Part shown: piece by piece, positions 42,649 to 60,401 of the stretch
Layout: every line of letters begins with the position of its first letter
Numbering within the stretch: position 1 is the stretch's first letter
Virus record (IMG/VR): IMGVR_UViG_3300027836_000008
From: a virus
Direction: 5' to 3' (one strand)
DNA length: 64,000 nucleotides
The notes under the pieces: generated by a model
Databases searched by the model: none
The model's input: only the letters and a program-made list of their open reading frames with translations
What the model was told of the DNA's origin: nothing
Translations under genes and position numbers: made by a program

Positions 42649-43249
42649 TAGAAATATGAACAGAATCTCCGTCATCGAAAACTTTATTACGCCAGAAGAA
42701 GCAGCACTGCTAATAGCAGAGCAAAATAATCCTTCTGAAACTAATCCATATCCAGAATACTATAAGGATAGATATGGTGGAACATCACTGCCATACAATA
42801 AGCCAGTGATGGATATACTAAAGAAATATGGCACTAAGTCAAATGAAATGCATAAAGCATTAAATGGATTTAAGAATGACATCTATGTCTTTAAGGCATT
42901 TGGTTCAAATTGGGCACCAGGAACAAAAGGCGACTTGCATATTGACGCACAAGGACCTGAGCCATGGATTGAGTTTAGCACAATCATCTATCTCAATGAT
43001 CCTAATGACTATGATGGTGGTGTTATATACTTCCCAAATCAAGGTTTTGAGTATAAGCCTAAGCAATACTCTGCAGTATTTTTTCCAAGTGCAGGAACAG
43101 AATACATACATGGCATAACTACAGTTCAAAGAGGTAACAGATACACTGCGTTGTATATGCATACATCTCTACCAAAGCATGTTGATCCAGAATTTCATCC
43201 TGGTATAAATAAATGGAAAGCAAAGGACTATCCCCTTGTCAAACTTTAA
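42638..43249 (+). CDS. 2OG-Fe(II) oxygenase (start may be 42656)
   Basis: LHID...STIIYLN...GG...IHGI...RYT. Confidence 0.85.
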   Translation: MVYNRNMNRISVIENFITPEEAALLIAEQNNPSETNPYPEYYKDRYGGTSLPYNKPVMDILKKYGTKSNEMHKALNGFKNDIYVFKAFGSNWAPGTKGDLHIDAQGPEPWIEFSTIIYLNDPNDYDGGVIYFPNQGFEYKPKQYSAVFFPSAGTEYIHGITTVQRGNRYTALYMHTSLPKHVDPEFHPGINKWKAKDYPLVKL

Positions 43250-43904
43250 TGTTGAGGTTTTAGATCTTGGAATTGCTTACTATACGAATGTAATTAAAGA
43301 TCCAGCATCATTAATTAAACAGATTGAAGATCTAGATAGTCGATACTCTGAAGACAGCCAGCCAACCTTAACTTCAGTTAAGCCTTGGGTGCCATGGACA
43401 TATGGCGAAGGTGAAAACAAACTAATGTTTTGCTGGCAAAAATTCATTCCACAAGTTAGCGACATACCAAATAATGATGTTTACTACGATGAACAAGTAA
43501 ACATATCCTCACAACTTTTTGGTGCACTTGATGCAACCCTTAAGCACTACACTACAGAACTATATCCATTTGCTGAAAAAAATATTAAGTCTAGAGAGCA
43601 CACAATGCATCTTCTTAAATATGATGAAAGTGGTCACCTTCCAGCACATCAAGATCAAGGGATTAGTAGTAGAGTTTTATCTGTTCTGCTATATCTCAAC
43701 GATGATTATGAAGGCGGAGAGATTGAATTTAGACACTCTGGGTTAAAGTTTAAGCCAAAGGCTGGAAGCGTCTTGTTCTTCCCTTCAAACTTCTTATATG
43801 TTCATGAGGTATATCCTGTAACAAAGGGTCCAAGATATGCCCTTCCAAATTGGTACCATAACATACCTATACAGTTCAAACGAGACTCGACAGGACAAGA
43901 ATGA
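43236..43904 (+). CDS. 2OG-Fe(II) oxygenase
   Basis: AHQD...SVLLYLNDDYEGGE...VHEV.PV..G.RY. Confidence 0.9.
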   Translation: MSNFNVEVLDLGIAYYTNVIKDPASLIKQIEDLDSRYSEDSQPTLTSVKPWVPWTYGEGENKLMFCWQKFIPQVSDIPNNDVYYDEQVNISSQLFGALDATLKHYTTELYPFAEKNIKSREHTMHLLKYDESGHLPAHQDQGISSRVLSVLLYLNDDYEGGEIEFRHSGLKFKPKAGSVLFFPSNFLYVHEVYPVTKGPRYALPNWYHNIPIQFKRDSTGQE

Positions 43905-45337
43905 TAATCCTAGGGGTCAATGAGACTTCACATGATGCATCTGTTTCTTTGATCCAAGATGGAAAGATTCTATTCGCTGGTCATGCTGAAAGATATAGTA
44001 AGCAAAAGAATGACTGGTATGTTAATGATAGTTTAGTTAATGATGCTTTGCAGTACGGGACACCTGATGCTATAGCCTACTATGAGAAACCCCTTCTAAA
44101 GGCCTCCAGACTGCTTATGAGGGGTGGTGCAGGGGATTGGAAGCCACGCTTTGATCTTCCTAATATCCCCAGAAAATCATTTGGTCATCACTACTCACAC
44201 GCTGCTGCTGGATACTATACTAGTCCTTTTAATGATGCAGTTATCGTTGTCCTAGATGCTATTGGAGAATACAATACCTCGACAATTTGGGTGGGCGAGG
44301 GTGATAAGATTAAATTAAAGTACAAACAAAACTATCCTATTAGTTTTGGATTGTTCTATTCAGCATTTACTCAACTCCTTGGACTAATGCCAAATCAAGA
44401 AGAGTATATTATGATGGGTATGGCTGCTTATGGAGACTGGAAGAGATACTATAAAGAAGTAGATGAGTACTTTCCAAACTATCATACACAAAAGTATAAC
44501 TTTCATAAAGGCATCCACGACTGGGGAATGCCAATAACTGAGCAGGATAAGTTTGATATTGCTGCTGCAGTTCAAGTTGTTTATACAACCAGACTCATGG
44601 AATTTATGAGGATGGCAAAGTTAATTACTGGTAAAAAGAATCTTGTTTTTATGGGTGGATGTGCACTTAACTCATCAGCCAACACATCTTTGTGGAAGTT
44701 GTTTGATATGATATGGATTATGCCTAACCCAGGGGATGCAGGAAGTTCTTTAGGTGCTGCTGCTGCGCTTTATGGCAAGCACTTAGATTGGGAAACTCCA
44801 TATCTTGGTTATGATCTTGGTGGAGAATATCCAGTACAAGAGATTGTTGATACTATTTTAAAAGATGGTGTTGCTGCAGTTGCTACAGGTAGAGCAGAGT
44901 ATGGTCCTCGTGCTCTTGGTAATAGATCAATCCTGGCTGACCCAAGAGATCCAAACATCAAGGATAAAGTAAATATGATTAAGAAGCGTGAACTGTTTAG
45001 ACCATTTGCTCCAGTTGTGCTAGAAGAGCATGCATCTAAATGGTTTGACATGGACTTTGCTTCTCCATATATGCAGTATACAGTTAAGTGTTTACAGCCA
45101 CACAAAATACCCTCAGTTGTTCATGAAGATGGAACATCTAGAGTTCAAACTGTTAATAAAAAGGATCATAGAGATTTATGGAGAACAATAAATAAGTTCT
45201 ACTTGCAAACTGGTGTACCAGTATTGCTGAATACAAGTTTAAACATCAAGGGGCAGCCCCTACTTAATGACGAAAACGATGTTACACTTTGGGAACAAAC
45301 CTACAATCAAAAAATACTAAGGGGCAAAAATGGATAG
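43901..45337 (+). CDS. O-carbamoyltransferase (NodU/CmcH/TobZ family)
   Basis: HDASVSL; HHYSHAA; GGCALNS; PGDAGSSLGAA; YGPRALGNRSILADP; FRPFAP; LLNTSLN.KG.P. Confidence 0.92.
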   Translation: MIILGVNETSHDASVSLIQDGKILFAGHAERYSKQKNDWYVNDSLVNDALQYGTPDAIAYYEKPLLKASRLLMRGGAGDWKPRFDLPNIPRKSFGHHYSHAAAGYYTSPFNDAVIVVLDAIGEYNTSTIWVGEGDKIKLKYKQNYPISFGLFYSAFTQLLGLMPNQEEYIMMGMAAYGDWKRYYKEVDEYFPNYHTQKYNFHKGIHDWGMPITEQDKFDIAAAVQVVYTTRLMEFMRMAKLITGKKNLVFMGGCALNSSANTSLWKLFDMIWIMPNPGDAGSSLGAAAALYGKHLDWETPYLGYDLGGEYPVQEIVDTILKDGVAAVATGRAEYGPRALGNRSILADPRDPNIKDKVNMIKKRELFRPFAPVVLEEHASKWFDMDFASPYMQYTVKCLQPHKIPSVVHEDGTSRVQTVNKKDHRDLWRTINKFYLQTGVPVLLNTSLNIKGQPLLNDENDVTLWEQTYNQKILRGKNG

Positions 45338-46028
45338 GCTAAGAATACTAATAAACTCATCACCAAGATCTGGACATACTTGGCTACAATACTTGCTTTT
45401 TAATTCTTTAAAAAATTCAAATAATGTAAACTTAGGTGCAACTGTTGATGATTTTATTGTAAGAACTAATGTGCCAGTAATCCTTAATGCAACATTTAAA
45501 GATATTGTTCAGGTAAGCATATTGCGAAGTCCACAAGACATAATTCCTTCTATTGTTACCAAGACAATGGGTGGGTTAGGAAATAATATAACTTCTGGTA
45601 TACCTATGCCACATGAAATGGGTAGTTTGCCTTCCCTTGAAAAGTTAGTTGATGATCAATTTGGCATATACAGGTTGTGGTCTGGCACCATGCTTGATAA
45701 TTTAGATAAAGTTATGGCCTTTACATTTGAACAAGCAACAACAGATACAGAGTTTGTTATGAGGTCCATAATGAAAAATTTCAATGTTGATTATAATATA
45801 GTTTTAAATGAAAACATTCCTGCATCAATTGAACATGCAAGAAGAAAGATTATGCAGCATGATAAGGGCGAGGTAGGTTTTAATAACCCAGTCCCAATTG
45901 ATAAAAAACCAGATGTCTATTATAAAATTAAAGAAATTGTAGACAATCATAAACTGCTTGAACCAACATTAAACTTTTATAAAGATGCATGTGATTTAAT
46001 AAAACAGTCACAATTAATGTGGAATTAA
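45330..46028 (+). CDS. Sulfotransferase-like protein
   Basis: 5'-PSB-like SPRSGHTWL; 3'-PB-like LRSPQDIIPS. Confidence 0.65.
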   Translation: MDRLRILINSSPRSGHTWLQYLLFNSLKNSNNVNLGATVDDFIVRTNVPVILNATFKDIVQVSILRSPQDIIPSIVTKTMGGLGNNITSGIPMPHEMGSLPSLEKLVDDQFGIYRLWSGTMLDNLDKVMAFTFEQATTDTEFVMRSIMKNFNVDYNIVLNENIPASIEHARRKIMQHDKGEVGFNNPVPIDKKPDVYYKIKEIVDNHKLLEPTLNFYKDACDLIKQSQLMWN

Positions 46029-48620: not shown

Positions 48621-49328
48621 TTATACCAGAAGTTGTTTAAAGAGCCAGTCACCATCTATAGGTGAAGGATTATAGGTTTGCATATCATACTCTGGGAATA
48701 TTTTTTCTACTTCAGAAGCAATCTCTTGTGACACTATGGTTTTCCACAAGTTTGGATCACCAAGGAAAACTATACCCTCATTATACTTTTTCTTGCTTTT
48801 TTCTATGTCTTTAAGGATTACCTTTGCACCTACGTAATCACTGAGTCTGTCAAGTTCTTCAATGTCCCCTGAAACTAATTTATCAAAACTAAAGCATTCC
48901 CCATGCTTAGACCAGTCTGATGTTATTTCTCTATAACTAGAAAACTGTCTGCTACCTATGTAAGAAAGGAACTGTTCAGAATTTGGCAACATCCCCTTGA
49001 ATAGGTCTGAGTTAAACATTTTATTATCAGGCCAGTCAGGGCTAAATCCTCTGTTGTGCATAAAAAGAATAGATAATGCCTGACCTATTGGATGTCTTTC
49101 TGTTGTTATGATCTTGTGTGTTTTTGCAAATTCTAAAAGTTGATGATCTTTTGTATCTGCGTGTATTCCAATAACTGGATTTGTTCTAGAAGATACCGTT
49201 GGATGTTTCCAAAACTCTTCATCATATTTTGTAAATCTCATACTATGAGACTTAGTGGCAAATGCAATAGAGTCAACAAGTAGGTGTGTTCCACAACGTG
49301 GTGGTGTCGATATAAAAAAACCAGGCAT
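48621..49328 (-). CDS. Sulfotransferase-like protein
   Basis: True start MPGFFISTPPRCGTHLL at 49328; TERHP.GQALS; FSFDKL. Confidence 0.65.
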   Translation of the reverse strand: MPGFFISTPPRCGTHLLVDSIAFATKSHSMRFTKYDEEFWKHPTVSSRTNPVIGIHADTKDHQLLEFAKTHKIITTERHPIGQALSILFMHNRGFSPDWPDNKMFNSDLFKGMLPNSEQFLSYIGSRQFSSYREITSDWSKHGECFSFDKLVSGDIEELDRLSDYVGAKVILKDIEKSKKKYNEGIVFLGDPNLWKTIVSQEIASEVEKIFPEYDMQTYNPSPIDGDWLFKQLLV

Positions 49329-49385
49329 ACAATAAGTATAGCAGAAAACACCTATGGTATAATTATTGAGAGCAAAGGATGTGTT

Positions 49386-50087
49386 ATGGATCAGCAAAGA
49401 CTTGACAACGCTAAAAGAGGCGTTACAGTTAATCAAGAAGGTAAAGAGTTTAGTTTTACATCTCCAATCCCTGGAGTGCATATTTATGATAATGTTTGGC
49501 CAGAGTCTGATGCATTTTTTGAAAAGTTGCTTACGCCAGAATTTTGGGAAACAAATACAGACATTCCTGGTGCTAGAAAATGGGTACGTGAAGACTTCTT
49601 TGATGATGTAGAGTATACAAAAGATAATGGCAAGAAGTCTGATACATGCTGGGTTTATTCTCACCCAGAAGCAAATGAAGCATTTAAGGATGTTGTTAAT
49701 TCATATACATTCCACTGGAATATTGATCCACGAAGCAGAGAGAGTTTAAGAATTTCTAGATTCTCAAACGGTGAATTCTTTGGGGCTCATGCAGATGATA
49801 CATATGCGACACCAAGAACTGTTTCCCTAGTCTATTATCCTAATGACGACTATGAAGGTGGAGAGTTAGAGTTTATTCACTTTGGTGTAACAATTAAGCC
49901 AAAGGCAAAGCAGTTGTTTATATTCCCTTCAGGCTATTCTTATGAGCATAGAATTACAGAAATTACTGCTGGTAATCCTAGATGGACTATCGTTTCATTC
50001 TTAGAGTTTGGTGATGATTTTGAAACAACAAAGAGAAGAAAAGATCTAGACTTTCCATACAAACCAATATTTAAAGAACTATTTTAA
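49386..50087 (+). CDS. 2OG-Fe(II) oxygenase
   Basis: AHAD...VSLVYYPNDDYEGGE...EH.I...RWTI. Confidence 0.88.
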   Translation: MDQQRLDNAKRGVTVNQEGKEFSFTSPIPGVHIYDNVWPESDAFFEKLLTPEFWETNTDIPGARKWVREDFFDDVEYTKDNGKKSDTCWVYSHPEANEAFKDVVNSYTFHWNIDPRSRESLRISRFSNGEFFGAHADDTYATPRTVSLVYYPNDDYEGGELEFIHFGVTIKPKAKQLFIFPSGYSYEHRITEITAGNPRWTIVSFLEFGDDFETTKRRKDLDFPYKPIFKELF

Positions 50088-50089
50088 AA

Positions 50090-50140
50090 TAAAAAAATAG
50101 GCTAAGAGGTTTTATTCTCCTAGCCTATTTTCTTTTTTAT
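50090..50140. terminator. Bidirectional intrinsic terminator
   Basis: A-tract, AATAGGCT...AGCCTATT stem, T-tract; lies between convergent genes. Confidence 0.7.
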
Positions 50141-50141
50141 A

Positions 50142-50411
50142 TTACTTCTTCTTTGGCGCAGCCTTCTTACGTGCTGGTGCCTTCTTAACAGTTGCCTTCT
50201 TGACTGCAGCATCGACTGTTGCTACGTCTGGCAAGCGACCAAATGCAGTGTCACTTGGATTGATTGCTCTCAATGCCACGGGTGCAAGAGCAGCCAATAG
50301 TGAGTATGCAAGTGTCTTAGGATCAGTAACCCCAGACATGTATAGTGCAAGTCCTGCACCAAGAACAGATCGTCCGTATGATGCTAGTAGTGCCTTTAGT
50401 TGTTCATTCAT
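50142..50411 (-). CDS. Holin-like membrane protein with Lys/Ala-rich tail
   Basis: SYGRS.L...two TMs...RAINPSD.AFG; KKAPARKKAAPKKK. Confidence 0.65.
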   Translation of the reverse strand: MNEQLKALLASYGRSVLGAGLALYMSGVTDPKTLAYSLLAALAPVALRAINPSDTAFGRLPDVATVDAAVKKATVKKAPARKKAAPKKK

Positions 50412-50421
50412 ATTATTCCTC

Positions 50422-50580
50422 CTAGGATATAGTTCGTGTTAGTACTGTAAAGCCAATCCATAGCCCAATAATTCCTGCGACTCCCGCAAAAACTGGTGGT
50501 GCTGGTACTGGCAATTTGAATGCAGCAAACACGATGCCACATCCAAAACCTGTTAGTGTTGATAGTATTACATCTTTCAT
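50422..50580 (-). CDS. XapX/DUF1427-type small membrane protein
   Basis: Read by hand: GIVFAAFKLPVPAPPVFAGVAGIIGLWIG. Confidence 0.75.
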   Translation of the reverse strand: MKDVILSTLTGFGCGIVFAAFKLPVPAPPVFAGVAGIIGLWIGFTVLTRTIS

Positions 50581-50668
50581 TATTTCTCCTTTTAGTATAA
50601 AAACTTTTTTTGTTTATTAATTTCTTTTTTTATCTTTCTAAATCTGTACCAATATAATACTTTATTAA

Positions 50669-51625
50669 TCATAGCCATCCCCTATCTTTTATTTCTTTAT
50701 CAAAGACATCTGCCCAATACTCATTAATAAGTATACCAGCATGACCGTCTCTTCTGTTAAGATCAAACTTTCCCATCTTTCCATCAGGTCTTTTTTTACT
50801 AATAAACTTCATTAATTCTTTAGCAGATAGTTCCACATAATTTTTAGATAGATTAATTAATTTATAGTTTTCATTTTCTGTATAGTCCCAGGAAGCCCAA
50901 AGCATCTTAGTTCCAATAGACTCACAATACTTTTCAAATAGTTTCCACTCAATTGCAAAATCAACCAAACATTTTCTATGCTCAGTTAGTGTCAAAGGCT
51001 TTGCAATAAGTAAGGGATCTAGAACTCTATCTCCGTCTTCTTGCTCTCTAGTGACAACACTACCATTAGGGTATCTTTGAACATATACATATCTATTTGA
51101 ATTAATGTCCCATTGAAAGAATCTACCTACATTTGGCAACAAAACAAATAGATGCTCTGGTGCACCGTACTTCTCTACATAGATCATAAAGTTTGATACA
51201 ACTTTTTGCCAACCAAACCCTGCTTTTGCTATTGTATAAAATCCAGACTTTTCCTGTTTATCTTGGTTTATTTTATTAAGAAGTAACTTTGACCATACAG
51301 TTTCTAGTGGTGCACCTAGACCTTCTGTTTGTGAGCATCCAGCAAAAAGAATGTGACTACCTTTATGCTCACTTGTAAAATCCTCGCACCTAAAGTAGTC
51401 TTGGTTTAAACTATACTCTACCGTGCCATCATCTTCTGCAATCTCAGTTGGTAGTTTAGTCCAAGTGCGTGACACTGGACTCCCATCTTCATTTTGTATT
51501 TCTGCCCAAGTCTTATCAAACCTATTATAGAAAACATCAGGAACATCTCCATTTAAACCATTAAGAAGAAACTTTTCGCTTCTACCTGTGCTGGCTTGTA
51601 ACTTTTCTACTCTTTTGTTTTTCAT
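50669..51625 (-). CDS. SGNH/GDSL-like protein, paralogue of 46035..46970
   Basis: FRCEDFT..H.G.HILFAGCSQTEGLG; YGAPE..FVL.PN; RRDGHAG. Confidence 0.65.
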   Translation of the reverse strand: MKNKRVEKLQASTGRSEKFLLNGLNGDVPDVFYNRFDKTWAEIQNEDGSPVSRTWTKLPTEIAEDDGTVEYSLNQDYFRCEDFTSEHKGSHILFAGCSQTEGLGAPLETVWSKLLLNKINQDKQEKSGFYTIAKAGFGWQKVVSNFMIYVEKYGAPEHLFVLLPNVGRFFQWDINSNRYVYVQRYPNGSVVTREQEDGDRVLDPLLIAKPLTLTEHRKCLVDFAIEWKLFEKYCESIGTKMLWASWDYTENENYKLINLSKNYVELSAKELMKFISKKRPDGKMGKFDLNRRDGHAGILINEYWADVFDKEIKDRGWL

Positions 51626-51634
51626 GTTGTCGTC

Positions 51635-52063
51635 TTATAGTTTTTCTGTTTTATCATAGTCTTCAGGCAATAAACTTTCTATCTTTTTATAAGCCTGAGA
51701 AATCTTTTTCATAGAGTAGTAATGGGGGTAGGCAGATCCGATTACACCATACTCATCAAAATAATCTATCTCTGGCTTTACTTCATCAATAAATGTCTTC
51801 AATTCGTTTTGGACTTCCTCAATATACTCAAAAGCCCAGTCCCTTGACTGTGTTACAAAGTTTAGGAATCCCTCTGTCTTCTCTACATCTTTACTTTCTC
51901 TAGAGTCAAGAGACGCTTTCAATACTTCGTTTCTTTGTATGAGATCAATAATCTGTAACTTAAGTTTGATATTCTTACTACGCATTCTTACTATGTTAAT
52001 GCTCACAGCAAAAAATGCAAATATAAAAACAATAAAAGATATAAAACTAATAGTCTCAGACAT
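51635..52063 (-). CDS. Single-TM coiled-coil protein
   Basis: N-terminal TM; FL.F...SRDWAFEYIE.VQ. Confidence 0.7.
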   Translation of the reverse strand: MSETISFISFIVFIFAFFAVSINIVRMRSKNIKLKLQIIDLIQRNEVLKASLDSRESKDVEKTEGFLNFVTQSRDWAFEYIEEVQNELKTFIDEVKPEIDYFDEYGVIGSAYPHYYSMKKISQAYKKIESLLPEDYDKTEKL

Positions 52064-52292
52064 CTTCTCCTCCTTCTCTCATTAGCATTACGATTGCTCC
52101 ATTATCCTCAAGAGCCTTCTTTACTCTTACCATATATTCTGCTGCTTCAAACTTTTCTTCTCCAGTTAAAGACATGAAGTCTTTTTCTTTTGCAAGAACA
52201 GTTATGAAGTGCTCCTCGTCAATAATGTAGACATTAAAGTTTTTTGGTGGTGTAAGAGACCTAAAGGCACGTTTCATGGCATCAGTATACAT
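52056..52292 (-). CDS. Conserved actinophage hypothetical protein
   Basis: MYTDAMKRAFRS... Confidence 0.7.
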   Translation of the reverse strand: MYTDAMKRAFRSLTPPKNFNVYIIDEEHFITVLAKEKDFMSLTGEEKFEAAEYMVRVKKALEDNGAIVMLMREGGEDV

Positions 52293-52313
52293 TATTGATC
52301 CTCGCACCCGTAT

Positions 52314-52598
52314 TTAGTCTGACATAGTTAGACTGCTCCAAGTCTTCCACCAATCTTCCTTCTTCCTGTGGTTATTAAATTCCCTCGATATAGCGCCACC
52401 TTCAAGATAGACACCACCCCAAACGCCCCACTCTTTGCCAGTAATGCCAACAGCAAAACAGTTTTTGCTTATTGGACATGTAGAACAAAGTTTGTCAATT
52501 GCTGGTCTTAGAAGTTCATCTTCTTCATACTTATCAAAGAATAGATTAGTGTCGTAGTCCAAGCATAAGGCTTCGTCTTTCCACTCATGCTTTTTCAT
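52314..52598 (-). CDS. whiB: WhiB-family Fe-S transcription factor
   Basis: WKDEALC...LFF...CSTCPISKNC...GVWGG: four Cys plus G(V/I)WGG. Confidence 0.92.
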   Translation of the reverse strand: MKKHEWKDEALCLDYDTNLFFDKYEEDELLRPAIDKLCSTCPISKNCFAVGITGKEWGVWGGVYLEGGAISREFNNHRKKEDWWKTWSSLTMSD

Positions 52599-52601
52599 AT
52601 G

Positions 52602-52811
52602 CTAAACCGCAAACTTTTGTGGTATATCCCAGCCACTGCTACCTGGTACAAAGCGTTGCTGCAAGTACCACTTGGAATCAACAAGAACACCATTCTTTGA
52701 TGTTCTACCCTTCTCTGATGGATACTGGTTAATAACAGTCCATCCATCCCAACTCAAAGTCTTGTTTGATGCAACAATTTCTTCCATACGTTCTAGTTCT
52801 TTAATGATCAT
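52602..52811 (-). CDS. Hypothetical protein
   Basis: LSWDGWTV...F.P...GW.IP. Confidence 0.7.
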   Translation of the reverse strand: MIIKELERMEEIVASNKTLSWDGWTVINQYPSEKGRTSKNGVLVDSKWYLQQRFVPGSSGWDIPQKFAV

Positions 52812-52822
52812 TTTATTCCATT

Positions 52823-53185
52823 CTAGTATCTAAAAATACCGATTTCGGTATTGTTTTGTTCTGCTACTGCTACCAATGAGGAAACGGTTTCCTTTGGCTG
52901 ACTTAAAAATGCAAAGTAGTCTACGTCCTTCATGTTTTCTTCGATCCAACTTGGAGGAACCTTGAATGACTTAATCTTCTTGCCACGAGATTTCATGCCT
53001 CGCTCAGATAGATTGACAAACTCTGAGACCATCGAGTTAATCTTTACAGGTCCAGCGGTATAGATGTAAAAGTATTCATCTTGCTCAGACATACCAGACA
53101 TTGCCACAGCCATAGCACGTAAAAATACGTTATAGTCTGTGAACTGGTTAGTTCCCTGCACTCCCACTATCATCTTTTTTCCCAT
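52823..53185 (-). CDS. SLOG/YspA-like protein
   Basis: IVGVQGT..F.DY...F.R. Confidence 0.5.
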   Translation of the reverse strand: MGKKMIVGVQGTNQFTDYNVFLRAMAVAMSGMSEQDEYFYIYTAGPVKINSMVSEFVNLSERGMKSRGKKIKSFKVPPSWIEENMKDVDYFAFLSQPKETVSSLVAVAEQNNTEIGIFRY

Positions 53186-53573
53186 CTCTAAGTTGATCTA
53201 TTATGAACAACATCTTGTCTAATTGTACCTTATCCATATTCATTGTGTCAACTACTGATGTTGTTTCTTTGTCAACACCTTCATTGGTCATACGTGCTGT
53301 ATAAAAGATATTATCCTTAATCCAGAACGCCTCATCTTCAACAATGATGACTCTTAAGTTAGTTTTATCATAATGCTTCCTTGTTTGAGTCGACCTTTGT
53401 GGTTTTATTAAGTTATTTTGATTAATAAAAGGACTAACTATGTGATGTATAGTGCTTTGACTATATTTATAAATATTAATTTTTTTAACATTTTCTTGTT
53501 CTTTATAAAATAGTTTGGCATAAACATACATGGCAAATATTGTGATCAATGATCCTAAAAAATATTTGGTCAT
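53148..53573 (-). CDS. Single-TM hypothetical protein
   Basis: N-terminal TM; AFWIKDN.FY.A. Confidence 0.7.
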   Translation of the reverse strand: MTKYFLGSLITIFAMYVYAKLFYKEQENVKKINIYKYSQSTIHHIVSPFINQNNLIKPQRSTQTRKHYDKTNLRVIIVEDEAFWIKDNIFYTARMTNEGVDKETTSVVDTMNMDKVQLDKMLFIIDQLRDGKKDDSGSAGN

Positions 53574-53585
53574 GATTTAATTATA

Positions 53586-53915
53586 TCAGTATTCTGGTAA
53601 CATTATGCGGATTACTTCTTTTAGGGTAGCCCTCTTTGCATCATCAAGTTTATCTACATGAGTTGCACTAAATGCTTTTGGTGTTAAAGTTACCTTTGGA
53701 TTTGCCTCCATTGGATCTAAATTAACAAAGCCATCTTCCCATAACGACATAATCTCTTCATGAAACATTGCCTGTTGAGTTTCATACAACTCTGGAGATA
53801 TTTCTTTTAGTTTATCAGTAAACTTATATAAAGCCTCACCAGTTTCCATATCAATAGCAGCGACCTCTAAGGCTCCATTAAGAATCAGTGCGTCAATAAA
53901 GTCATCCTCACTCAA
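53586..53915 (-). CDS. Hypothetical protein, paralogue of 53908..54135
   Basis: TTG start after GGAGG; L.L.GALEV...D..TGE.LY..TDKLK. Confidence 0.7.
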   Translation of the reverse strand: MSEDDFIDALILNGALEVAAIDMETGEALYKFTDKLKEISPELYETQQAMFHEEIMSLWEDGFVNLDPMEANPKVTLTPKAFSATHVDKLDDAKRATLKEVIRIMLPEY

Positions 53916-54135
53916 CGTTAATCCTCCATTGCATAATTTTTGGACCTGCATCAATCATTTGATACATGTTGTATTTAAAGGTTTGTTCAAGATCTTCGTA
54001 CATGTCTGGATAAACAGTCTTTAACTTATCTGTAATTGTGTACAGTGTTTCTCCAGAATCAACGTCAAATCCAGATACCTCCAGCGCCCCTTGAAGCACA
54101 AGATGCTCCATTAGGGCTTGATTCTTTATGCTCAT
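53908..54135 (-). CDS. Hypothetical protein
   Basis: LVLQGALEVSGFDVDSGETLYTITDKLK. Confidence 0.7.
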   Translation of the reverse strand: MSIKNQALMEHLVLQGALEVSGFDVDSGETLYTITDKLKTVYPDMYEDLEQTFKYNMYQMIDAGPKIMQWRINVE

Positions 54136-54386
54136 TATTCTCCAATAAAGTCTAAGAAGTCTTGTTTTGTTTTTGCACCATTCATTCGCTTAACTTCTAA
54201 ACCATCTTTAAGAAGAATGTATGTTGGAATAGTCTTAACACCAAAGTTTTGAACAAGTTCTGTTTCAGAATCTGCGTCTACAAAGACAAAATCGATGACT
54301 CCATCACGCTTTAGTTCTTCAGCAACTGGTCTTGTACGCTGACATGGGTTACACCATTCAGCAGTGAAGTAAAGTACATGACTCAC
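54135..54386 (-). CDS. Thioredoxin
   Basis: FTAEWCNPC; IPT. Confidence 0.92.
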   Translation of the reverse strand: MSHVLYFTAEWCNPCQRTRPVAEELKRDGVIDFVFVDADSETELVQNFGVKTIPTYILLKDGLEVKRMNGAKTKQDFLDFIGE

Positions 54387-54790
54387 TTGCCAGACTTCTT
54401 TCTAGCCTTTGCAAGGGCATCAAAGTCCTTAACCTTTGTATCTCCTAAGTATCCCCATGCATAACCATCATTGATCATCATGTCGTTAAGTGATACAGTG
54501 TTTCCATCTACATATACCCAGCCCAAAATGCGACCATACTTCTCAGATGAATCCATCTTTTCAGTCTTAATAACAACAGCCTTAGCATCCTTCAGAGCCT
54601 TCTTTAGGTACTCCTTGGCTTCTAGACCTAGTGCCTTCTCAGCAAGGTCTTTTGTGCGTGACTCAGGGGTATCAATACCAGCCAGTCTTACACGAGATGC
54701 AAACAGGATGTCAAACCCTAGATCAATAAGCACATCGATAGTATCTCCATCGACAACTGCTTCTACTTTTCTTACATAGTACTCATACAT
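54383..54790 (-). CDS. Thermonuclease (SNase-like)
   Basis: VVDGDTID; RVRLAGIDTPE; KYGRILG. Confidence 0.92.
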   Translation of the reverse strand: MYEYYVRKVEAVVDGDTIDVLIDLGFDILFASRVRLAGIDTPESRTKDLAEKALGLEAKEYLKKALKDAKAVVIKTEKMDSSEKYGRILGWVYVDGNTVSLNDMMINDGYAWGYLGDTKVKDFDALAKARKKSGK

Positions 54791-54955
54791 ATTATTCTCC
54801 TTTTATCACTGGATCTAGTCTATCCCAATAACCATTTTCGTTACCCTGAAAGACTTTACCTGTTTCTCTATCTAAAAGTAGCCACTTGTTTGGCGACTTT
54901 GTGTACACTTTAAGTTCTACAGCAGAGTCTAATTCTTTAAATTCAAAAGACTCTC

Positions 54956-55159
54956 TCATTTTCTACCCCACTGAACATTATTCCAGCCACGCTCATGTGC
55001 GTAGTAAATAAATATTTTCACTACCGTTTCCCAGAATGCAATTGCACCAGATAGGGTAGCATTTCCTGTTAAGACATATGCAACAACAAATGAGGAAAGC
55101 GTTCCCCAAATACGATAACTCATTGCCTTAGCAAATGATCTAGCCCTTGTTACTGTCAT
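54956..55159 (-). CDS. DUF2061-type membrane protein
   Basis: RSFAKAMSYR...YY.HER.WN...WG. Confidence 0.85.
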   Translation of the reverse strand: MTVTRARSFAKAMSYRIWGTLSSFVVAYVLTGNATLSGAIAFWETVVKIFIYYAHERGWNNVQWGRK

Positions 55160-55218
55160 CTTTATCCTTAAAGTATAGTTGGGCCTCTTTATCTGCCCAA
55201 TCGTTAGTTAAAAAGAAA

Positions 55219-55986
55219 TTAAATACCCATCTCTTTACGTTTTTGAGTAGCCGAAATAGCATGAACGTCTGCCCCCAAGTCTACTTGCTCAATCTTGTAT
55301 CCGACATCACGCCCATATACAATGTTGGTAATGTTAGGCATCTTAACTACAAATGCATCTGGAACATCATTAAGGATATGCTGCTTTACTTCATGGAAGT
55401 GTAGTGGATCCTTGGGTGTCATACCTGATGTGTGACGAACACCAATTACAACTTGGTAGGCTCGCTTCTTTGCCTCTTCGTAAAGGGCACGGTGACCTTC
55501 ATGCCAAGGCTGGTAGCGACCAAGAAGAAGAACTGTATCTTCCTTCCAGTCAATTAGACCAAACTTACGTACAACTGTAATTGCTCTTGTTGGAAGAGAG
55601 TCTAGGTAGTCATCTCCTGTAACCTCAATACGGTGATCGTAGTGCTGAGGATCTTCCCAAAGTTTATTAGTGTCTTCGAAGCGACCTTCTTTAATTGTAT
55701 CAACCCATACAACTAGGTCTGCTTCACCGAATGCTCTGCGAGTTTCTTCTGTTGGACAAACAAAATCAACGATTACTGGACGATCCTGACGTTGTTCCAT
55801 CAATCGTGCGAGTTCTCCCATGCGACGTGCTTGTTCGATTCGATCTTCAGGTGTAAAACCAAGATCTTTATTTAGGCCATTACGAACTTCATCTGCATTT
55901 AGATGAAGACCATTGACTCTATCACTTACTGCGCCTGCAATACTGGTTTTACCAGCCCCTGGCAATCCTATAAAAAGAACAATCAT
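55219..55986 (-). CDS. cysC: Adenylyl-sulfate kinase fused to an HxGH nucleotidyltransferase domain
   Basis: GLPGAGKT; LNADEVRNGLNKDLGFTPEDR; then LGRYQPWHEGH and ISATQKR. Confidence 0.85.
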   Translation of the reverse strand: MIVLFIGLPGAGKTSIAGAVSDRVNGLHLNADEVRNGLNKDLGFTPEDRIEQARRMGELARLMEQRQDRPVIVDFVCPTEETRRAFGEADLVVWVDTIKEGRFEDTNKLWEDPQHYDHRIEVTGDDYLDSLPTRAITVVRKFGLIDWKEDTVLLLGRYQPWHEGHRALYEEAKKRAYQVVIGVRHTSGMTPKDPLHFHEVKQHILNDVPDAFVVKMPNITNIVYGRDVGYKIEQVDLGADVHAISATQKRKEMGI

Positions 55987-56066
55987 TTATTTCCCTATCG
56001 CTTAGTGACTACACTGTAGCCAATCATCTTCCTATTATACTACTAAAGTATAGAGTTTGCAACCCT

Positions 56067-56630
56067 CTACGTCAGTTCTACTTCTCTTGTTGGCATAATA
56101 TCAATTAGTAGGTGTACTCTATCTATATCGCTATTATTTTTTACTGAGTGAAGTCTGGTATTGTTAATTTCCCAGCACTCACCTTCAAGCATATTGATCT
56201 TTTCTAGACCAACACCAAACTTTGTTTCTTGACTTGTGATAATGGCAACGTGATGTCTTCTTGAGTATACAAGGTAGTCCCCGTCATCAAAGTGACTAGG
56301 GATATTCTGGTTAGCCTTTAATTTTATAATCAAGACGTTCCCTCTAACACCTTCGTGTATTTTTTCTAAATCCTTGATTATTGGCTCTACCATTTCGAGG
56401 AGTAGATCATCATCTGATTTGACCTCGTAATTAAACTTGGTACCCTTGCTCCAACCAAGGTCTGATTTATATAAAAAATATGACTCAGTATCTTTGTGAT
56501 TACTGTATTGCTCTTGTCTAGAAGTATCCAAAAACCATTCGTCTGCAAACTTTAAGATGTGGGATTTAATGGCATCGATATTATAGGTACCATGATTTTT
56601 AAAATTAAAGTCTTCAGATATCTTACTCAT
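56067..56630 (-). CDS. Aspartyl/asparaginyl beta-hydroxylase-like 2OG oxygenase
   Basis: SHFD...RHHVAI...WEINNTRLHSVKN...RVHLLID. Confidence 0.85.
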   Translation of the reverse strand: MSKISEDFNFKNHGTYNIDAIKSHILKFADEWFLDTSRQEQYSNHKDTESYFLYKSDLGWSKGTKFNYEVKSDDDLLLEMVEPIIKDLEKIHEGVRGNVLIIKLKANQNIPSHFDDGDYLVYSRRHHVAIITSQETKFGVGLEKINMLEGECWEINNTRLHSVKNNSDIDRVHLLIDIMPTREVELT

Positions 56631-57226
56631 TGCAAATCTTCCAATTCTTCAAAGTCTTTAGAATATTCAAAACGATCAAAGTCTGATTTATATATTTTTT
56701 GTACTAAATCTATGGCTTCGTCTGTATAGTCTTTGTTGTATAATTCTATCACATACTTGCCAGGGTTGTCAAATCCCAGTTCCAAATCAAAATCATTTTT
56801 AAGTTCGCTAAGATCTTCAAATCTATATATCTTATCTGTTGATACAACTCCATGCTCATTAATTACATATAGGTATTGTGGTAGATGTAATAGTGGAGTT
56901 ATCCTAGATATATTATTTCTTTGAATATTTTTTAAATACTCTGAAAAAGATATGTTGGTTTTATTAGTCTTGTTAAACTGGTGAAAGCAACTATAGGTTC
57001 TTGTATATGGATTCCTAACAACAGCAAAAGAAAAAACTGATTCGCTGACTATATTTTGTTGCTTTAAGATTACTAATGGCAAATGACCTCTAGGATATTC
57101 GACTGATCTTCTATCCCAGGGATCCAAGCCTTTATCTTTAAGTACATTTAGTATAGATGTTCCAGCAGTTTTTGGTATATGAACAAACAATGGTTTGTCA
57201 TATTCTTTACCATCAATAAGCATCAA
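56627..57226 (-). CDS. Sulfotransferase family 2 (HNK-1/chondroitin-type)
   Basis: FVHIPKTAGTSI; FAVVRNPYTR..S; H..PQ; YRFEDL; YKSDF.RFEY. Confidence 0.85.
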   Translation of the reverse strand: MMLIDGKEYDKPLFVHIPKTAGTSILNVLKDKGLDPWDRRSVEYPRGHLPLVILKQQNIVSESVFSFAVVRNPYTRTYSCFHQFNKTNKTNISFSEYLKNIQRNNISRITPLLHLPQYLYVINEHGVVSTDKIYRFEDLSELKNDFDLELGFDNPGKYVIELYNKDYTDEAIDLVQKIYKSDFDRFEYSKDFEELEDLQ

Positions 57227-57460
57227 CTACCCTTTAGATAGTTTTTCTCGTTCATCAACAACACTGATCATAAATGACATCATCTTGCTATAACCTTCTG
57301 GGTTATCCATGATCTTATTATAGTGGTGACCACAAAATAATAGATCTCCGTTAAGTCCAGTAACCTGTACCAATGCTTCTGCTGCACAGGAATCACACCT
57401 ATCGGTTGCCTTGAGTTTCCACTCTTTCTGAACTTCTGTAGATTCAATCATCGTATCCAT
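57227..57460 (-). CDS. Small actinobacterial-type zinc-binding protein
   Basis: LKATDRCDSC...LLFCGHH. Confidence 0.75.
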   Translation of the reverse strand: MDTMIESTEVQKEWKLKATDRCDSCAAEALVQVTGLNGDLLFCGHHYNKIMDNPEGYSKMMSFMISVVDEREKLSKG

Positions 57461-57466
57461 AGTATA

Positions 57467-57652
57467 CTACTTCTTTCTATTATCTGTGCTATAAAATCCC
57501 GAACCATTGAACTGAGCGCCAACGGGTGTATAATGTCTTTTCATATCAGAACCACAATCACCACAAGGATAAGTCTCTTTGTAGTTTGAGATACTGGTAT
57601 TAAATGGAATGATCTTACTATTGCATTCGCATTTATATTCGTATATAGGCAT
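57467..57652 (-). CDS. FmdB-family zinc ribbon
   Basis: MPIYEYKC.C...C..CG..M.R...F.GSGFYSTD. Confidence 0.85.
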   Translation of the reverse strand: MPIYEYKCECNSKIIPFNTSISNYKETYPCGDCGSDMKRHYTPVGAQFNGSGFYSTDNRKK

Positions 57653-57755
57653 TACTTCTTCTTTGCTTTTACTGTCCAGATTGGTGCACTGAGATTATCT
57701 CCGCCCCATTCATATCCTAAAACTTTGACTACAAATCTAATAATTTTAATACGCA

Positions 57756-57956
57756 TTACTTTACCTCCTTGCCGAACTTTGCCCATACTCTTTCATGGAT
57801 AAAGTATCCAAGTGCTTCCCAGCCAATATAAAGAAGTGCACCAAGTGATGCGTACTCCCATTCACCAGTGAAAAGATAAATAACTCCAGCGACTCCAACA
57901 AGGTGAAAGGTTTCCCAACTTGCCGTCTTTAACAATGTTCTCTTAGTTGATTCCAT
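57756..57956 (-). CDS. DUF2061-type membrane protein, copy 2
   Basis: RTLLKTASW...YFIHERVW. Confidence 0.75.
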   Translation of the reverse strand: MESTKRTLLKTASWETFHLVGVAGVIYLFTGEWEYASLGALLYIGWEALGYFIHERVWAKFGKEVK

Positions 57957-58748
57957 TTATGCCCCCAAAATTTTCTTATAAGTAATTGTATCAACGATAC
58001 CATTGATAGTCAACTTATTCTTCTTTTGAAAATCCTTAACAGCCTTATCTGTTCCTGGACCAAACTCTCCATCTGCAGTAAGTCCAAGGGCTTCCTGAAT
58101 CTTCTTAACAGAAGATCCTTTTGCCCCTACCTTGAATGGCTTAAACTCCTTCTTAGCAGCGGTTGTAGCAGGCTTTGAAGCCTTTACAGGTGCATCAGAG
58201 GATCCCACCTTTGAAAGTAGTGGAAGGTTTTCTTCACCAGCGTATACTGGACGACCCCAACCAACGATTGCATTCATCAACTTAGGCTTATTATTCTTTA
58301 CATATGCACGAGTCTTTTCTACACACATTCCGCCATTTCGTTGGTCTCCCTTTGCAGTTCCTGAAGTATTTCCTTCGATAACCTGAATTGTTCCATCTCC
58401 ATTGTTTTTAATGCAAAGACCGACATGTGAAATTCGATTTACGCCATCATCTGGGAAATCAAAATAGATCCAGTCTCCAGGAGTTGGGTCATCATTACGA
58501 GCATCTGCCCAGCGATCATTCTTCTTAAACCAATCAGATGCTGCAACCGTTGCTGCACTCTTTGGATACTTCTTTGGATCTAGTCCTGCAGTAAATGCAC
58601 ACCATGAAACAAATGACTGACACCATGGAAGGAAGTTTGCACCTGTCCACTTACCATACTTTGTTTCATTATCTTTTGGACCTTCGATAGTCCCAATTTC
58701 TTTCTTTGCAACCTCAATGATTGCTTCTAGTGAACCTTTTGTTGCCAT
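57957..58748 (-). CDS. Endolysin: CHAP amidase plus peptidoglycan-binding domain
   Basis: PWCQSFVSW; HVGL; IEGNTS; C-terminal LGLTADG.FGPGT..AVK.FQ...L..NGIVD. Confidence 0.92.
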   Translation of the reverse strand: MATKGSLEAIIEVAKKEIGTIEGPKDNETKYGKWTGANFLPWCQSFVSWCAFTAGLDPKKYPKSAATVAASDWFKKNDRWADARNDDPTPGDWIYFDFPDDGVNRISHVGLCIKNNGDGTIQVIEGNTSGTAKGDQRNGGMCVEKTRAYVKNNKPKLMNAIVGWGRPVYAGEENLPLLSKVGSSDAPVKASKPATTAAKKEFKPFKVGAKGSSVKKIQEALGLTADGEFGPGTDKAVKDFQKKNKLTINGIVDTITYKKILGA

Positions 58749-58789
58749 TTTATCCTCCTACGGATCTTATTGTATAATTATACCATTTG

Positions 58790-58862
58790 CTGGGCTGGCA
58801 GGTATCGATCCTGCGACATCCGAATTAACAGTTCGGCACTCTACCATCTGAGTTACAGCCCA
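58790..58862 (-). tRNA. tRNA-Asn(GUU), atypical T-loop AUCGAUA
   Basis: TGGGCTG/CAGCCCA-G; CCGAA-CT GTT AA-TTCGG. Confidence 0.88.
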
Positions 58863-58870
58863 CCATTCTC

Positions 58871-59656
58871 TTAGTTAGAGAGAATTGTTACAGCAGTGCT
58901 ACCTGCTGAAATTGATTTTGAATTTGCTGCAAGTGCAACAGTTGCTACTGAAGTTGAAAAACCAATGGTTTCACCATTTGGAAGCAACCCCTTGATTGTT
59001 GATAGATTTTCAGGAGTTACTAGTGTAGCAAGAATGTCAACCTTTGCTCCTGCATAAAGGTATGACCCAACAGACACAACTTCTGACACACATGCAGGGA
59101 AATCAATAGGCTTTGCTGCGTTGTTTCCTGCTGCTGCATAAACCTGAATACCCTTTTGGTTTAGTGAGATCACCGAAGACTTCACCTTATCAAACCCCGT
59201 TTGTGGTGTGTATGGCGCTGATGCTGGAGGGAAGCACTGTCCAGCCAACTTTCCTGTAGCATTCATGTATCGTGAAAATGATACACCAGATACACTAGCA
59301 GAATTGTTGTTTACAAATGTTAGTGCATCAATAAATCCAATAAGATTGACATCTGCAGCAACACCCTTCTTGCTTACTGGTGCTGCTTGAATCAAAACTA
59401 GTGTTGCAGATGGATTCTGCTGACGAGCAACAAGTGCCATCTGAGTTCCATGATCCTTGTTTGATGCTGTCTTATTAGTGCAACGATCTGATGCAACACA
59501 CACAAACTCAACGCTTCCGCCAACTTGTGTTAGATTAAATGCATTATCAATAATTACAATGCGCTCACCTACTGCTGCCTGTGACTGTACTGGTGCTACA
59601 ACTGAAAACAATACTGCTACTAGTGCTACGATCTTCTTCATTTTATTCCTTTTCAT
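58871..59656 (-). CDS. Secreted subtilisin-like (S8) peptidase
   Basis: Signal peptide; VIID, DHGTQMA, AAAGNN, FPAC, STSVAT. Confidence 0.75.
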   Translation of the reverse strand: MKRNKMKKIVALVAVLFSVVAPVQSQAAVGERIVIIDNAFNLTQVGGSVEFVCVASDRCTNKTASNKDHGTQMALVARQQNPSATLVLIQAAPVSKKGVAADVNLIGFIDALTFVNNNSASVSGVSFSRYMNATGKLAGQCFPPASAPYTPQTGFDKVKSSVISLNQKGIQVYAAAGNNAAKPIDFPACVSEVVSVGSYLYAGAKVDILATLVTPENLSTIKGLLPNGETIGFSTSVATVALAANSKSISAGSTAVTILSN

Positions 59657-59657
59657 T

Positions 59658-59861
59658 TTACGATATCATCAATCTGATGACATGACAACATGGGTCGCCA
59701 CCTGCGTCCCACTCTTCTAACTCTTCTTCACCCATATATTCGTATCCACCATCATGGGTATTGCAGTAAGGAGGTGTAACCCAACCTCTTTCAATACCGT
59801 TTGAAAGCCAGATGCCAAACTCTTGTTCTTCTGGTGACAAATCTTCGTGCTTGTGATCCAT
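59658..59861 (-). CDS. Hypothetical protein
   Basis: W...GIERGW...C.THDG...GGDPC. Confidence 0.7.
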   Translation of the reverse strand: MDHKHEDLSPEEQEFGIWLSNGIERGWVTPPYCNTHDGGYEYMGEEELEEWDAGGDPCCHVIRLMIS

Positions 59862-59876
59862 ATACTAAGTATACCC

Positions 59877-60401
59877 CTAAAGACTAACTACGTCAACTGG
59901 GCCCATGCATGATGGGCTAAATTTAATTGCTGCAGAGACTGCAGATACTACACGATTTCTTGCATTCTTTTGTTTATCTGTAGCATAAAGTACACCATAT
60001 GCGTACTCTGCTCCAGAACCCATAGCAAGATATGGAAGTGTATATTTAGATAAAGACATATCTGCAGAACTATGTTCATAAATTTCACCACGAACTGCGA
60101 TGATCAAACCAAGATCTCCATCCTTAGATGTGTCTACCCAGAACTCATTATAGAATTCACGAAGTTCTTTAACAAACTTTGTTTGCATAAACTTATCTGT
60201 GTCCTTGATATTTGGTGCAGTTGGTTTAAAATTGTAACGGATTCTTTCTCCGTCCATTGCTCCTGCATAGCCCATAAGATACGGACCAATTTTCCAAACC
60301 TTGGGTGCATCTAATGCCAATATGGTACCGTCATCTGAGGCACCACGATCTCCAGCCATGTAGATTTTATCTTCATGTTTTACTACAGCAATACAAGTCA
60401 T
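59877..60401 (-). CDS. HslV/proteasome-beta-like Ntn hydrolase
   Basis: M-T-C-I N-terminal Thr; MAGD; AMGSGAEYA.G. Confidence 0.8.
   Translation of the reverse strand: MTCIAVVKHEDKIYMAGDRGASDDGTILALDAPKVWKIGPYLMGYAGAMDGERIRYNFKPTAPNIKDTDKFMQTKFVKELREFYNEFWVDTSKDGDLGLIIAVRGEIYEHSSADMSLSKYTLPYLAMGSGAEYAYGVLYATDKQKNARNRVVSAVSAAIKFSPSCMGPVDVVSL

Follow-up and report, generated by a model that had tools for sequence, protein, structure and literature searches.

To our knowledge, only two types of enzyme, the ATP sulfurylase Sat and CysDN, account for sulfate activation. In the PAPS synthases—the metazoan PAPSS1 and PAPSS2, and Sat-CysC fusions of bacteria and fungi such as that of Aquifex (2gks)—a single chain of approximately 550-630 amino acids (aa) joins an adenosine 5'-phosphosulfate (APS) kinase to a nucleotidyltransferase (NT) of the HIGH superfamily bearing an HxxH motif, whereas NodP/NodQ and CysD/CysN/CysC constitute a dedicated supply of 3'-phosphoadenosine 5'-phosphosulfate (PAPS) beside sulfotransferases. 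Here we analyze a stretch of 64,000 nucleotides of viral DNA (IMG/VR record IMGVR_UViG_3300027836_000008; hereafter the window), one gene of which encodes a 255-aa protein that likewise unites in one chain an APS-kinase domain and a very small HIGH-superfamily NT (the mini-NT; Table 1), and which protein, judging from its motifs and the company its homologues keep, is in our estimation fairly probably a non-canonical one-chain PAPS synthase.

The phage fusion has the kinase-then-transferase order of PAPSS1/2, and the motif trio of Sat finds a parallel in it; but its NT, of approximately 105 aa, is related to NadM, has no PUA-like domain and gave no match to the Sat family PF01747, and its kinase, unlike those of the PAPS synthases, has no lid. 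With the Nod and Cys systems it shares the dedicated supply beside sulfotransferases and a DUF2061 companion, whereas the components of those heterodimeric, GTP-coupled sulfurylases—the PP-loop protein CysD and a GTPase—are both absent from the mini-NT system. The closest relative of the mini-NT is the nicotinamide-mononucleotide adenylyltransferase (NMNAT) of the NadM type (MJ0541, 1f9a; Francisella NadM-Nudix, 2qjt), with its motifs GRFQPFHxGH, NP, and SGTEIR; compared with NadM, the mini-NT has gained VR(D/H)T and YGRDVGY, and its partner is always an APS kinase and never a Nudix domain. A similar logic, in which the AMP-X made by a HIGH NT is then phosphorylated by a P-loop kinase, governs both the NMNAT-ribosylnicotinamide kinase (RNK) pair of NadR and the phosphopantetheine adenylyltransferase (PPAT)-dephospho-CoA kinase (DPCK) pair of CoA synthase, the kinase of CoA synthesis targeting the adenosine 3'-OH, as occurs in PAPS; the phage kinase, however, belongs to the APS-kinase family rather than to the DPCK or RNK families, and its gene contexts are sulfur-related, unlike those of the NadR and CoA pairs. 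Finally, Cj1415 of Campylobacter, a cytidine-diphosphoramidate 3'-kinase homologous to CysC, is evidence that homologues of APS kinase can act on donors that carry no sulfate, although in that system the partner NT, Cj1416, has another fold and a glutamine kinase plus an amidase are required, which enzymes are absent around the mini-NT.

That the open reading frame (ORF) of the fusion did not arise by chance is indicated by thousands of full-length homologues in metagenomes, sized 250-257 aa, by invariant motifs that are kept in both halves down to 33% identity, and by the end-to-end match of PHROG 10255 ("kinase"; E 2e-58). Full-length homologues at 35-39% identity are carried by the Xylella phages Sano and Salvo and by Stenotrophomonas, Xanthomonas, and Clavibacter phages, the large (168 kb) Stenotrophomonas phage DLP6 among them; at the nucleotide level, a megablast search of window positions 50000-60000 against the INPHARED phage records returned no match. 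The original prediction had described a 255-aa protein composed of a CysC domain and a domain with GRYQPWHEGH and SATQKR, which composition was borne out by the ORF and by Pfam (APS_kinase at residues 2-85, E 6.3e-16; CTP_transf_like at residues 154-185, E 4.6e-5). The AlphaFold model of the whole fusion, built from 48 sequences, reached a pLDDT of 95.5 and a pTM of 0.87.

Regarding the kinase half, we recognized a P-loop (GLPGAGKT), LNADEVR at the place where canonical enzymes have LDGDNxR, and the motifs LGF, EDR, FVCP, and RFEDTN. A phmmer search of the PDB retrieved the APS-kinase domain of PAPSS1 at 1.6e-10, the best 50 Foldseek matches of the AlphaFold2 (AF2) model in the PDB were all APS kinases, and the family model of APS kinase (CysC, PF01583) was matched significantly over profile positions 4-91 of 152. 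Residues N30, A31, D32, R35, F44, R49, F75, P78, and F103 are invariant; D32 we take to be the catalytic Asp, and R35, F44, R49, FVCP, and F103 to be the counterparts of the APS-binding residues in solved APS kinases, all of which positions, together with the Walker A motif, are invariant or nearly so. When the half was aligned with canonical CysC and a Cj1415-like kinase, the P-loop, D32 (the second Asp of DGDN), R35, F44 (of LGF), R49, and FxxP were seen to be retained, whereas the lid segment of canonical CysC is gone in all the short kinases of the clade, the Pfam match ending at profile position 91. By sequence, the kinase half is thus assigned to the APS-kinase family as an enzyme minus one defining element, the lid.

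The atypical character of this kinase, lid-less and with NAD in the place of DGDN, would also suit a pair that makes some other 3'-phospho-nucleoside-diphosphate-X donor, in which case X rather than sulfate would be the group moved by the sulfotransferase-like enzymes; the model for such a pathway is Campylobacter, whose Cj1416 and Cj1415 reportedly, from work of the Raushel laboratory, build 3'-phospho-cytidine diphosphoramidate. A SAR11 contig, moreover, has an APS_kinase-family gene beside a pyruvate-phosphate-dikinase (PPDK)/PEP-utilizing kinase, a class-I glutamine amidotransferase (GATase), and an NTP_transferase. Nevertheless, in none of the contexts examined did a glutamine kinase or amidohydrolase partner lie close to the mini-NT pair, the NT of the phosphoramidate pathway belongs to a different fold family (NTP_transferase), and the stacking Phe of LGF, for which the Cj1415-like protein has His, is retained in the short kinases. 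In addition, a canonical CysC is found among the fusion partners, and the pair shows linkage with bona fide sulfotransferase families of the PAPS type, with AprBA, and with the DUF2061 associated with nodPQH. We consequently regard this other donor as improbable.

The mini-NT half carries the motifs GRYQPWHEGH (residues 156-165), VRHT, KDP, PNI, YGRDVGY, and ISATQKR (residues 244-250), with G156, R157, Q159, H162, H165, G225, R226, G229, and R250 invariant, and represents a family of its own that comprises 831 clusters at 50% identity and occurs both as free proteins of 110-130 aa and in fusions. The invariance of H162-E-G-H165 and of I244-S-A-T-x-x-R250, together with the CTP_transf_like match, places it in the HIGH superfamily. 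Searched against the PDB, its profile matched the NadM-type NMNATs 1f9a (E 3e-15) and 2qjt (7e-13) and no ATP sulfurylase even at E<=10; the matches of the NCBIfam NadM-Nudix models to the fusion (E 5e-7) fell far short of the cut-offs of those models; and a comparison by hhalign with four SAR11 Sat proteins recovered the HxxH turn only, at a probability of 7%. The AF2 model of the mini-NT alone had a pLDDT of 95.3, with just three strands assigned by DSSP. In Foldseek, NMNAT and PPAT were the closest structures and no Sat appeared in the top 50, while VIA-align gave Z values of 9.9 for NMNAT, 9.8 for PPAT, and 8.1 over 106 residues for the Thermus Sat 1v47, this last value being a tie with many other HIGH enzymes; across NMNAT, PPAT, CCT, and Sat, the Z values of 8-10 extended over 103-106 of the 110 residues, so that, on the model, the fold match reflects the bare HIGH-fold core. 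In the structural comparison that the original prediction had called for, then, NMNAT and PPAT came first, with Sat trailing.

The trio HxGH/GRD/ISxTxxR does resemble the HRAH/GRDHAG/ISGTxxR of Sat, but that likeness could be convergence, only the GRD tripeptide recalling GRDHAG; the family features of Sat—its model and profile, QxRNPxHxxH plus GRDHAG, and the PUA-like domain—were not found. On the grounds of profile and fold, the mini-NT is best described as a derivative of NadM and not as a trimmed Sat: the earlier idea of a stripped-down Sat of approximately 100 aa did not hold, and descent from Sat is rejected on the PDB profile search, the hhalign result, and the Foldseek ranking. Nor is the mini-NT a genuine NMNAT. 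The motifs and profile of NadM are present, whereas approximately 25 residues corresponding to profile positions 82-92 (MJ0541 residues 75-110) are lost on the way from the third strand to the GY...ISxT region, which segment of NadM, according to published NMNAT structures, carries the nicotinamide-binding helix; and the fusion ends 5 residues past the Arg of ISATxxR, the C-terminal subdomain of NadM being absent. The same deletion speaks against a nicotinamide-mononucleotide or phosphopantetheine transferase, the identity that the original prediction had considered incompatible with its proposal. Two Arg residues have no counterpart in NadM, namely R184 of VR(D/H)T, which is nearly invariant, and R226 of YGRDVGY, which is invariant.

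The unusually small size of the mini-NT and the three strands of its model, taken with the loss of the kinase lid, might alternatively denote an appendage that catalyzes nothing and has a structural or regulatory role, such as replacing the lid or serving as an oligomerization module; fungal ATP sulfurylase, which bears an inactive APS-kinase-like domain, provides a comparison. This alternative we judge very improbable, as the conservation of HxGH, ISxTxxR, R184, and GRD across divergent members down to 33% identity would be unexpected in an inactive domain, and the NT exists also as a separate protein.

A further alternative is that the kinase half alone takes part in sulfur metabolism, converting to PAPS the APS that the host produces by means of CysDN, Sat, or AprBA, whereas the NT performs an unrelated adenylyl or cytidylyl transfer, such as one related to NAD or ADP-ribose and retained from NadM. 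The proximity to NadM by profile and by fold agrees with this possibility, as does the NADAR-domain gene located directly upstream of the fusion in Xylella phage Sano, and published phage studies treat such genes simply as cysC for sulfur assimilation; the deletion at the nicotinamide helix, on the other hand, does not, and neither does the fact that three different architectures, spread over several phyla, tie the NT to APS kinases.

The kinase-NT module is not a phage invention, since SAR11, SAR86, and soil Alphaproteobacteria carry it on their chromosomes. The kinase-then-NT fusion occurs in phages and in the soil Alphaproteobacteria; the reverse order, in which the NT precedes a fully canonical CysC, is seen in P0127 (Pfam 5.7e-63, profile positions 2-151) and again in a gammaproteobacterial metagenome-assembled genome (L088); and split, overlapping genes for a 136-aa kinase and a 124-aa NT are found in approximately 55 SAR11 genomes, Pelagibacter HIMB1495 included, and in SAR86. 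The kinase is present in approximately 70 of 81 NT loci. A complex prediction for the split SAR86 kinase and NT scored 0.00, which value argues neither for nor against binding.

The mini-NT is, furthermore, a neighbor of three sulfotransferase families: Sulfotransfer_2 in the window; Sulfotransfer_1 in a SAR11 genome (G018), where the fusion lies between a DegT aminotransferase and the directly downstream sulfotransferase within a sugar-tailoring operon; and Sulfotransfer_3 in Sphingomicrobium (G004), approximately 1 kb from the fusion. DUF2061 also accompanies the module: of 82 related phage loci, 75 encode it on the same strand directly after the fusion, at a median of 37 bp downstream, and many related loci have two copies flanking the cassette, as in the window; a DUF2061 gene is also found in the nod loci of Mesorhizobium, beside nodH, nodP, and nodQ, the classic set for PAPS supply and sulfotransfer.

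The phyletic pattern was studied in a fixed sample of 81 Pelagibacteraceae (SAR11) genomes, many of them single-cell assemblies, for which the p values given below treat the genomes as independent, without correction for phylogeny or completeness. Within this sample the mini-NT was detected in 37 genomes, Sat in 4, CysD in 6, AprA in 28, and a sulfotransferase in 34. The NT and CysD never occurred together (p 0.03), whereas the NT and a sulfotransferase coincided in 25 genomes, with 12 having only the NT, 9 only the sulfotransferase, and 35 neither (p 3e-5); among the 9 sulfotransferase-positive genomes with no NT, 4 possessed CysD. The association with AprA was the closest of all, the NT being present in 27 of the 28 AprA-positive genomes (p 4e-12), 26 of which had no Sat, and the NT pair lying 1.4-3 kb from aprBA in approximately 11 genomes. 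The literature states that most SAR11 have no ATP sulfurylase, and that the aprAB genes of SAR11 are under very strong purifying selection.

In the complete SAR86 chromosome there are two strong sulfotransferases and a sole APS-kinase match, which is the partner of the NT, while a search of that chromosome found no Sat, no gene of the PAPS_reduct family (CysD/CysH), and no AprA. AprA was likewise not found in four alphaproteobacterial genomes with the pair or the fusion, so that the link with Apr is specific to SAR11. These patterns bear directly on the alternative of an unrelated transfer by the NT: the SAR11 genomes with the pair do usually have AprBA, which is able to make APS for the kinase, but no Sat, CysD, or AprA was found as a source of APS in the complete SAR86 genome or in the fusion-bearing soil Alphaproteobacteria, and the mutual exclusion of the NT and CysD in the SAR11 sample is difficult to reconcile with it. 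We consider that alternative unlikely, though the least so of the three that we weighed.

We therefore return to the one-chain PAPS synthase. The domain identities, the conservation of the catalytic motifs, the gene linkage, and the phyletic patterns were directly established, and APS is the compound common to all the links of the NT—to APS kinase, to APS reductase, to the exclusion of CysD, and to the consumers of PAPS. For an HxGH enzyme acting on APS, the simplest reaction would be ATP + sulfate <-> APS + pyrophosphate (PPi), the chemistry of its distant cousin Sat. From this we infer that the NT accepts sulfate, which way the flux runs, and that the two steps are coupled, as follows. The NadM-derived mini-NT would adenylylate sulfate (ATP + sulfate -> APS + PPi), and the fused lid-less kinase would at once phosphorylate the 3'-OH of APS to give PAPS, thereby pulling forward the unfavorable APS-forming step. 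The PAPS so produced would supply the three sulfotransferases of the phage, the family-2 enzyme most likely sulfating a hydroxyl group that the neighboring AspH-like hydroxylase has introduced, with the DUF2061 membrane protein as a fixed accessory of the cassette; in SAR11, the mini-NT could also work in the reverse direction, downstream of AprBA.

In favor of this proposal are the match of the kinase by both sequence and fold, the repeated fusions and adjacency, the three sulfotransferase families, the DUF2061 linkage, the SAR11 sample, the SAR86 gene set, and the NadM deletion with the gained Arg residues. Several observations nevertheless weigh against it. The replacement of the first Asp of DGDN by Asn (LNAD) and the absence of the whole mobile lid segment (the RDxKGLYKKAR/KGLYKKAR region) mean that the substrate of the kinase could differ from APS; APS-kinase homologues do serve other donors, and a Cj1415-1418-like cluster occurs in SAR11. 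The detectable relatives of the mini-NT are NMNAT and PPAT rather than Sat, and the fold search does not discriminate among the three. The cassette sulfotransferase was within the flanks examined in just 9 of the 82 related phage loci. In the SAR11 sample, whose p values presuppose independent genomes, 5 sulfotransferase-positive genomes had no detected activation gene of any kind, 5 NT-positive genomes displayed neither AprA nor a sulfotransferase, and 3 of the 4 Sat-positive genomes carried the NT as well, which last finding contradicts a strict complementarity between the NT and Sat. AprBA could, moreover, itself supply the APS in SAR11, leaving another role for the NT. On balance, of the original proposal of a compact kinase plus sulfurylase that would give the phage its own PAPS, the function is the reading best supported by comparative genomics, at the level of deduction, whereas the Sat origin falls.

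Within the window the cassette is arranged in the order DUF2061, sulfotransferase, AspH-like hydroxylase, fusion, DUF2061 (Table 1), Pfam and PHROG having confirmed the flanking genes as they had been named in the original prediction. The family-2 sulfotransferase possesses both PAPS-binding motifs, the 5'-PSB and the 3'-PB (PKTAGTS and RNPYTRTYS), as befits a member of its family; in the related phage loci it is always paired with the hydroxylase (9/9 loci), and in 6 of those the two genes abut the fusion, with the hydroxylase directly upstream.

Table 1. Positions in the window of the kinase-NT fusion, its two domains, the other cassette genes, and two distant sulfotransferase-like genes.
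Feature	Position	Strand	Evidence and remarks
Kinase-NT fusion gene	55219-55986	(-)	255 aa; APS-kinase domain + mini-NT
Lid-less APS-kinase domain (residues 1-145)	55552-55986	(-)	Pfam APS_kinase, PDB phmmer, Foldseek
Mini HxGH nucleotidyltransferase (residues 146-255)	55222-55551	(-)	Pfam CTP_transf_like, NadM profile match, fold search
DUF2061 small membrane protein, directly downstream of fusion	54956-55159	(-)	Pfam E 1.8e-17
AspH/LpxO-like Fe(II)/2-oxoglutarate (2OG) hydroxylase, overlapping the sulfotransferase stop	56067-56630	(-)	Pfam Asp_Arg_Hydrox E 7e-14
Family-2 sulfotransferase	56627-57226	(-)	Pfam Sulfotransfer_2 E 8e-7; phrog_3347 galactose-3-O-sulfotransferase E 4e-15
Second DUF2061 membrane protein, upstream end of cassette	57756-57956	(-)	Pfam E 6.2e-11
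Probable Sulfotransfer_1-like enzyme, approximately 9 kb from fusion	45330-46028	(+)	PRSGHTW, LRSPQDIIPS motifs; Atlas clusters
Probable Sulfotransfer_1-like enzyme, ORF residues 113-347	48621-49328	(-)	PRCGTH, RHPIGQALS motifs; Atlas clusters

The two more distant genes, at 45330 and 48621, had also been called sulfotransferase-like, for which assignment their PAPS-loop-like motifs (PRSGHTW and PRCGTH, respectively) and Atlas clusters speak, while an above-threshold Pfam match was wanting: the former matched Sulfotransfer_1 below the threshold (E 0.014), and the ORF at 48621-49664 had no Pfam match. The nearest Atlas clusters of both are all sulfotransferase clusters (score 0.97), and in those nearest to the 48621 ORF, Sulfotransfer_1 is found in 88-98% of the members, so that we consider the two products probable sulfotransferases. 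The 48621 ORF (347 aa) opens with a GTG codon and is rich in Cys and Phe over its first 112 codons; as the sulfotransferase-like part starts at Met113, the real gene is probably of approximately 235 aa, and the upstream 112 codons are probably untranslated.

Beside the 45330 gene runs a series of tailoring genes—a Methyltransf_24 (41944-42648), two 2OG-Fe(II) oxygenases (42638-43249 and 43236-43904), and a NodU/CmcH-type carbamoyltransferase (43901-45337)—which suggests a larger island for the modification of a small molecule or a glycan. As to the host, the window encodes a phrog_1221 protein (29630-30652), approximately 53% identical to Streptomyces phage proteins and common to hundreds of actinophages, and a DUF7455 protein (57227-57460), from which two proteins the host may be an actinobacterium rather than SAR11. 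In 18 of the 82 related phage contigs, a gene of the flavin-dependent tryptophan-halogenase family lies, at a median of approximately 600 bp, downstream of the fusion and DUF2061 (for example L070 3067-4593, E 2e-105). In phage Sano (L001 4957-6726), the fusion homologue gp35 is directly preceded by gp34, the NADAR-domain protein (E 6e-26), and, two genes upstream, by gp33, with a weak Sulfotransfer_4 match (E 4e-4), whereas a MazG-like pyrophosphatase is annotated in the record two genes further upstream. The phage DUF2061 proteins are single-repeat forms of 66-67 aa, unlike the cellular ones (G003 C3:42865-43248; G002 C1:457729-458109), which consist of two tandem repeats in open frames of 258 and 179 aa.

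Among the cellular loci, the complete SAR86 genome (L109 8643-10369) has, directly upstream of the kinase/NT pair, a PF03601 (YeiH-like) membrane protein, of a family often annotated as a putative sulfate exporter. The SAR11 genome G012 (L179 5064-13112) presents in order a Cys/Met pyridoxal-phosphate (PLP) enzyme, a major-facilitator-superfamily (MFS) transporter, the kinase-NT, a cytochrome c, AprB, and AprA, in a stretch that in this and approximately 10 other SAR11 genomes runs in one direction and includes also a TENA/haem-oxygenase-like protein, a SET-domain protein, and an unassigned protein of 263 aa. A polysaccharide locus of Pelagibacter sp. HIMB1495 (L168, G001 contig 2, 3406-9050) contains the APS_kinase-family gene (364 aa), a formyltransferase, a PPDK_N/PEP-utilizer (775 aa), the class-I GATase (207 aa), and the NTP_transferase (252 aa), which set is that of the O-methyl-phosphoramidate pathway of Campylobacter (Cj1415-1418); by that analogy, a surface glycan of some SAR11 may bear phosphoramidate.

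In the literature on DUF2061, on phage APS kinase with sulfotransferase, on SAR11 with PAPS, and on ATP sulfurylase with NMNAT, we found no description of the mini-NT as a sulfurylase. The fusion, which on our reading works like a PAPS synthase yet stands outside the Sat family, would, given biochemical confirmation, count as a new class of enzyme. The fullest form of the proposal, for and against which we find the case about evenly balanced, is that the mini-NT constitutes a third, NadM-derived class of ATP sulfurylase beside Sat and CysDN and forms with the lid-less kinase the smallest known PAPS synthase; that in SAR11 it converts the APS from AprBA into ATP and sulfate during sulfite detoxification; and that SAR86 and many phages of aquatic habitats and of plant pathogens depend on it alone for activated sulfate. 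A third type of approximately 105 aa would then represent a minimal catalytic solution for sulfate activation, and the reading of sulfur genes in metagenomes would change. In SAR11, the ocean's most abundant heterotroph, and in SAR86, the "missing ATP sulfurylase" step may be filled by the same enzyme pair, and the acknowledged SAR11 gap—aprAB kept, ATP sulfurylase mostly absent—would become directly testable. Finally, the widely reported phage "cysC" auxiliary metabolic genes would be self-contained PAPS factories for phage sulfotransferases, which would point to a component of the host or the virion being sulfated in the course of infection rather than to sulfur assimilation.

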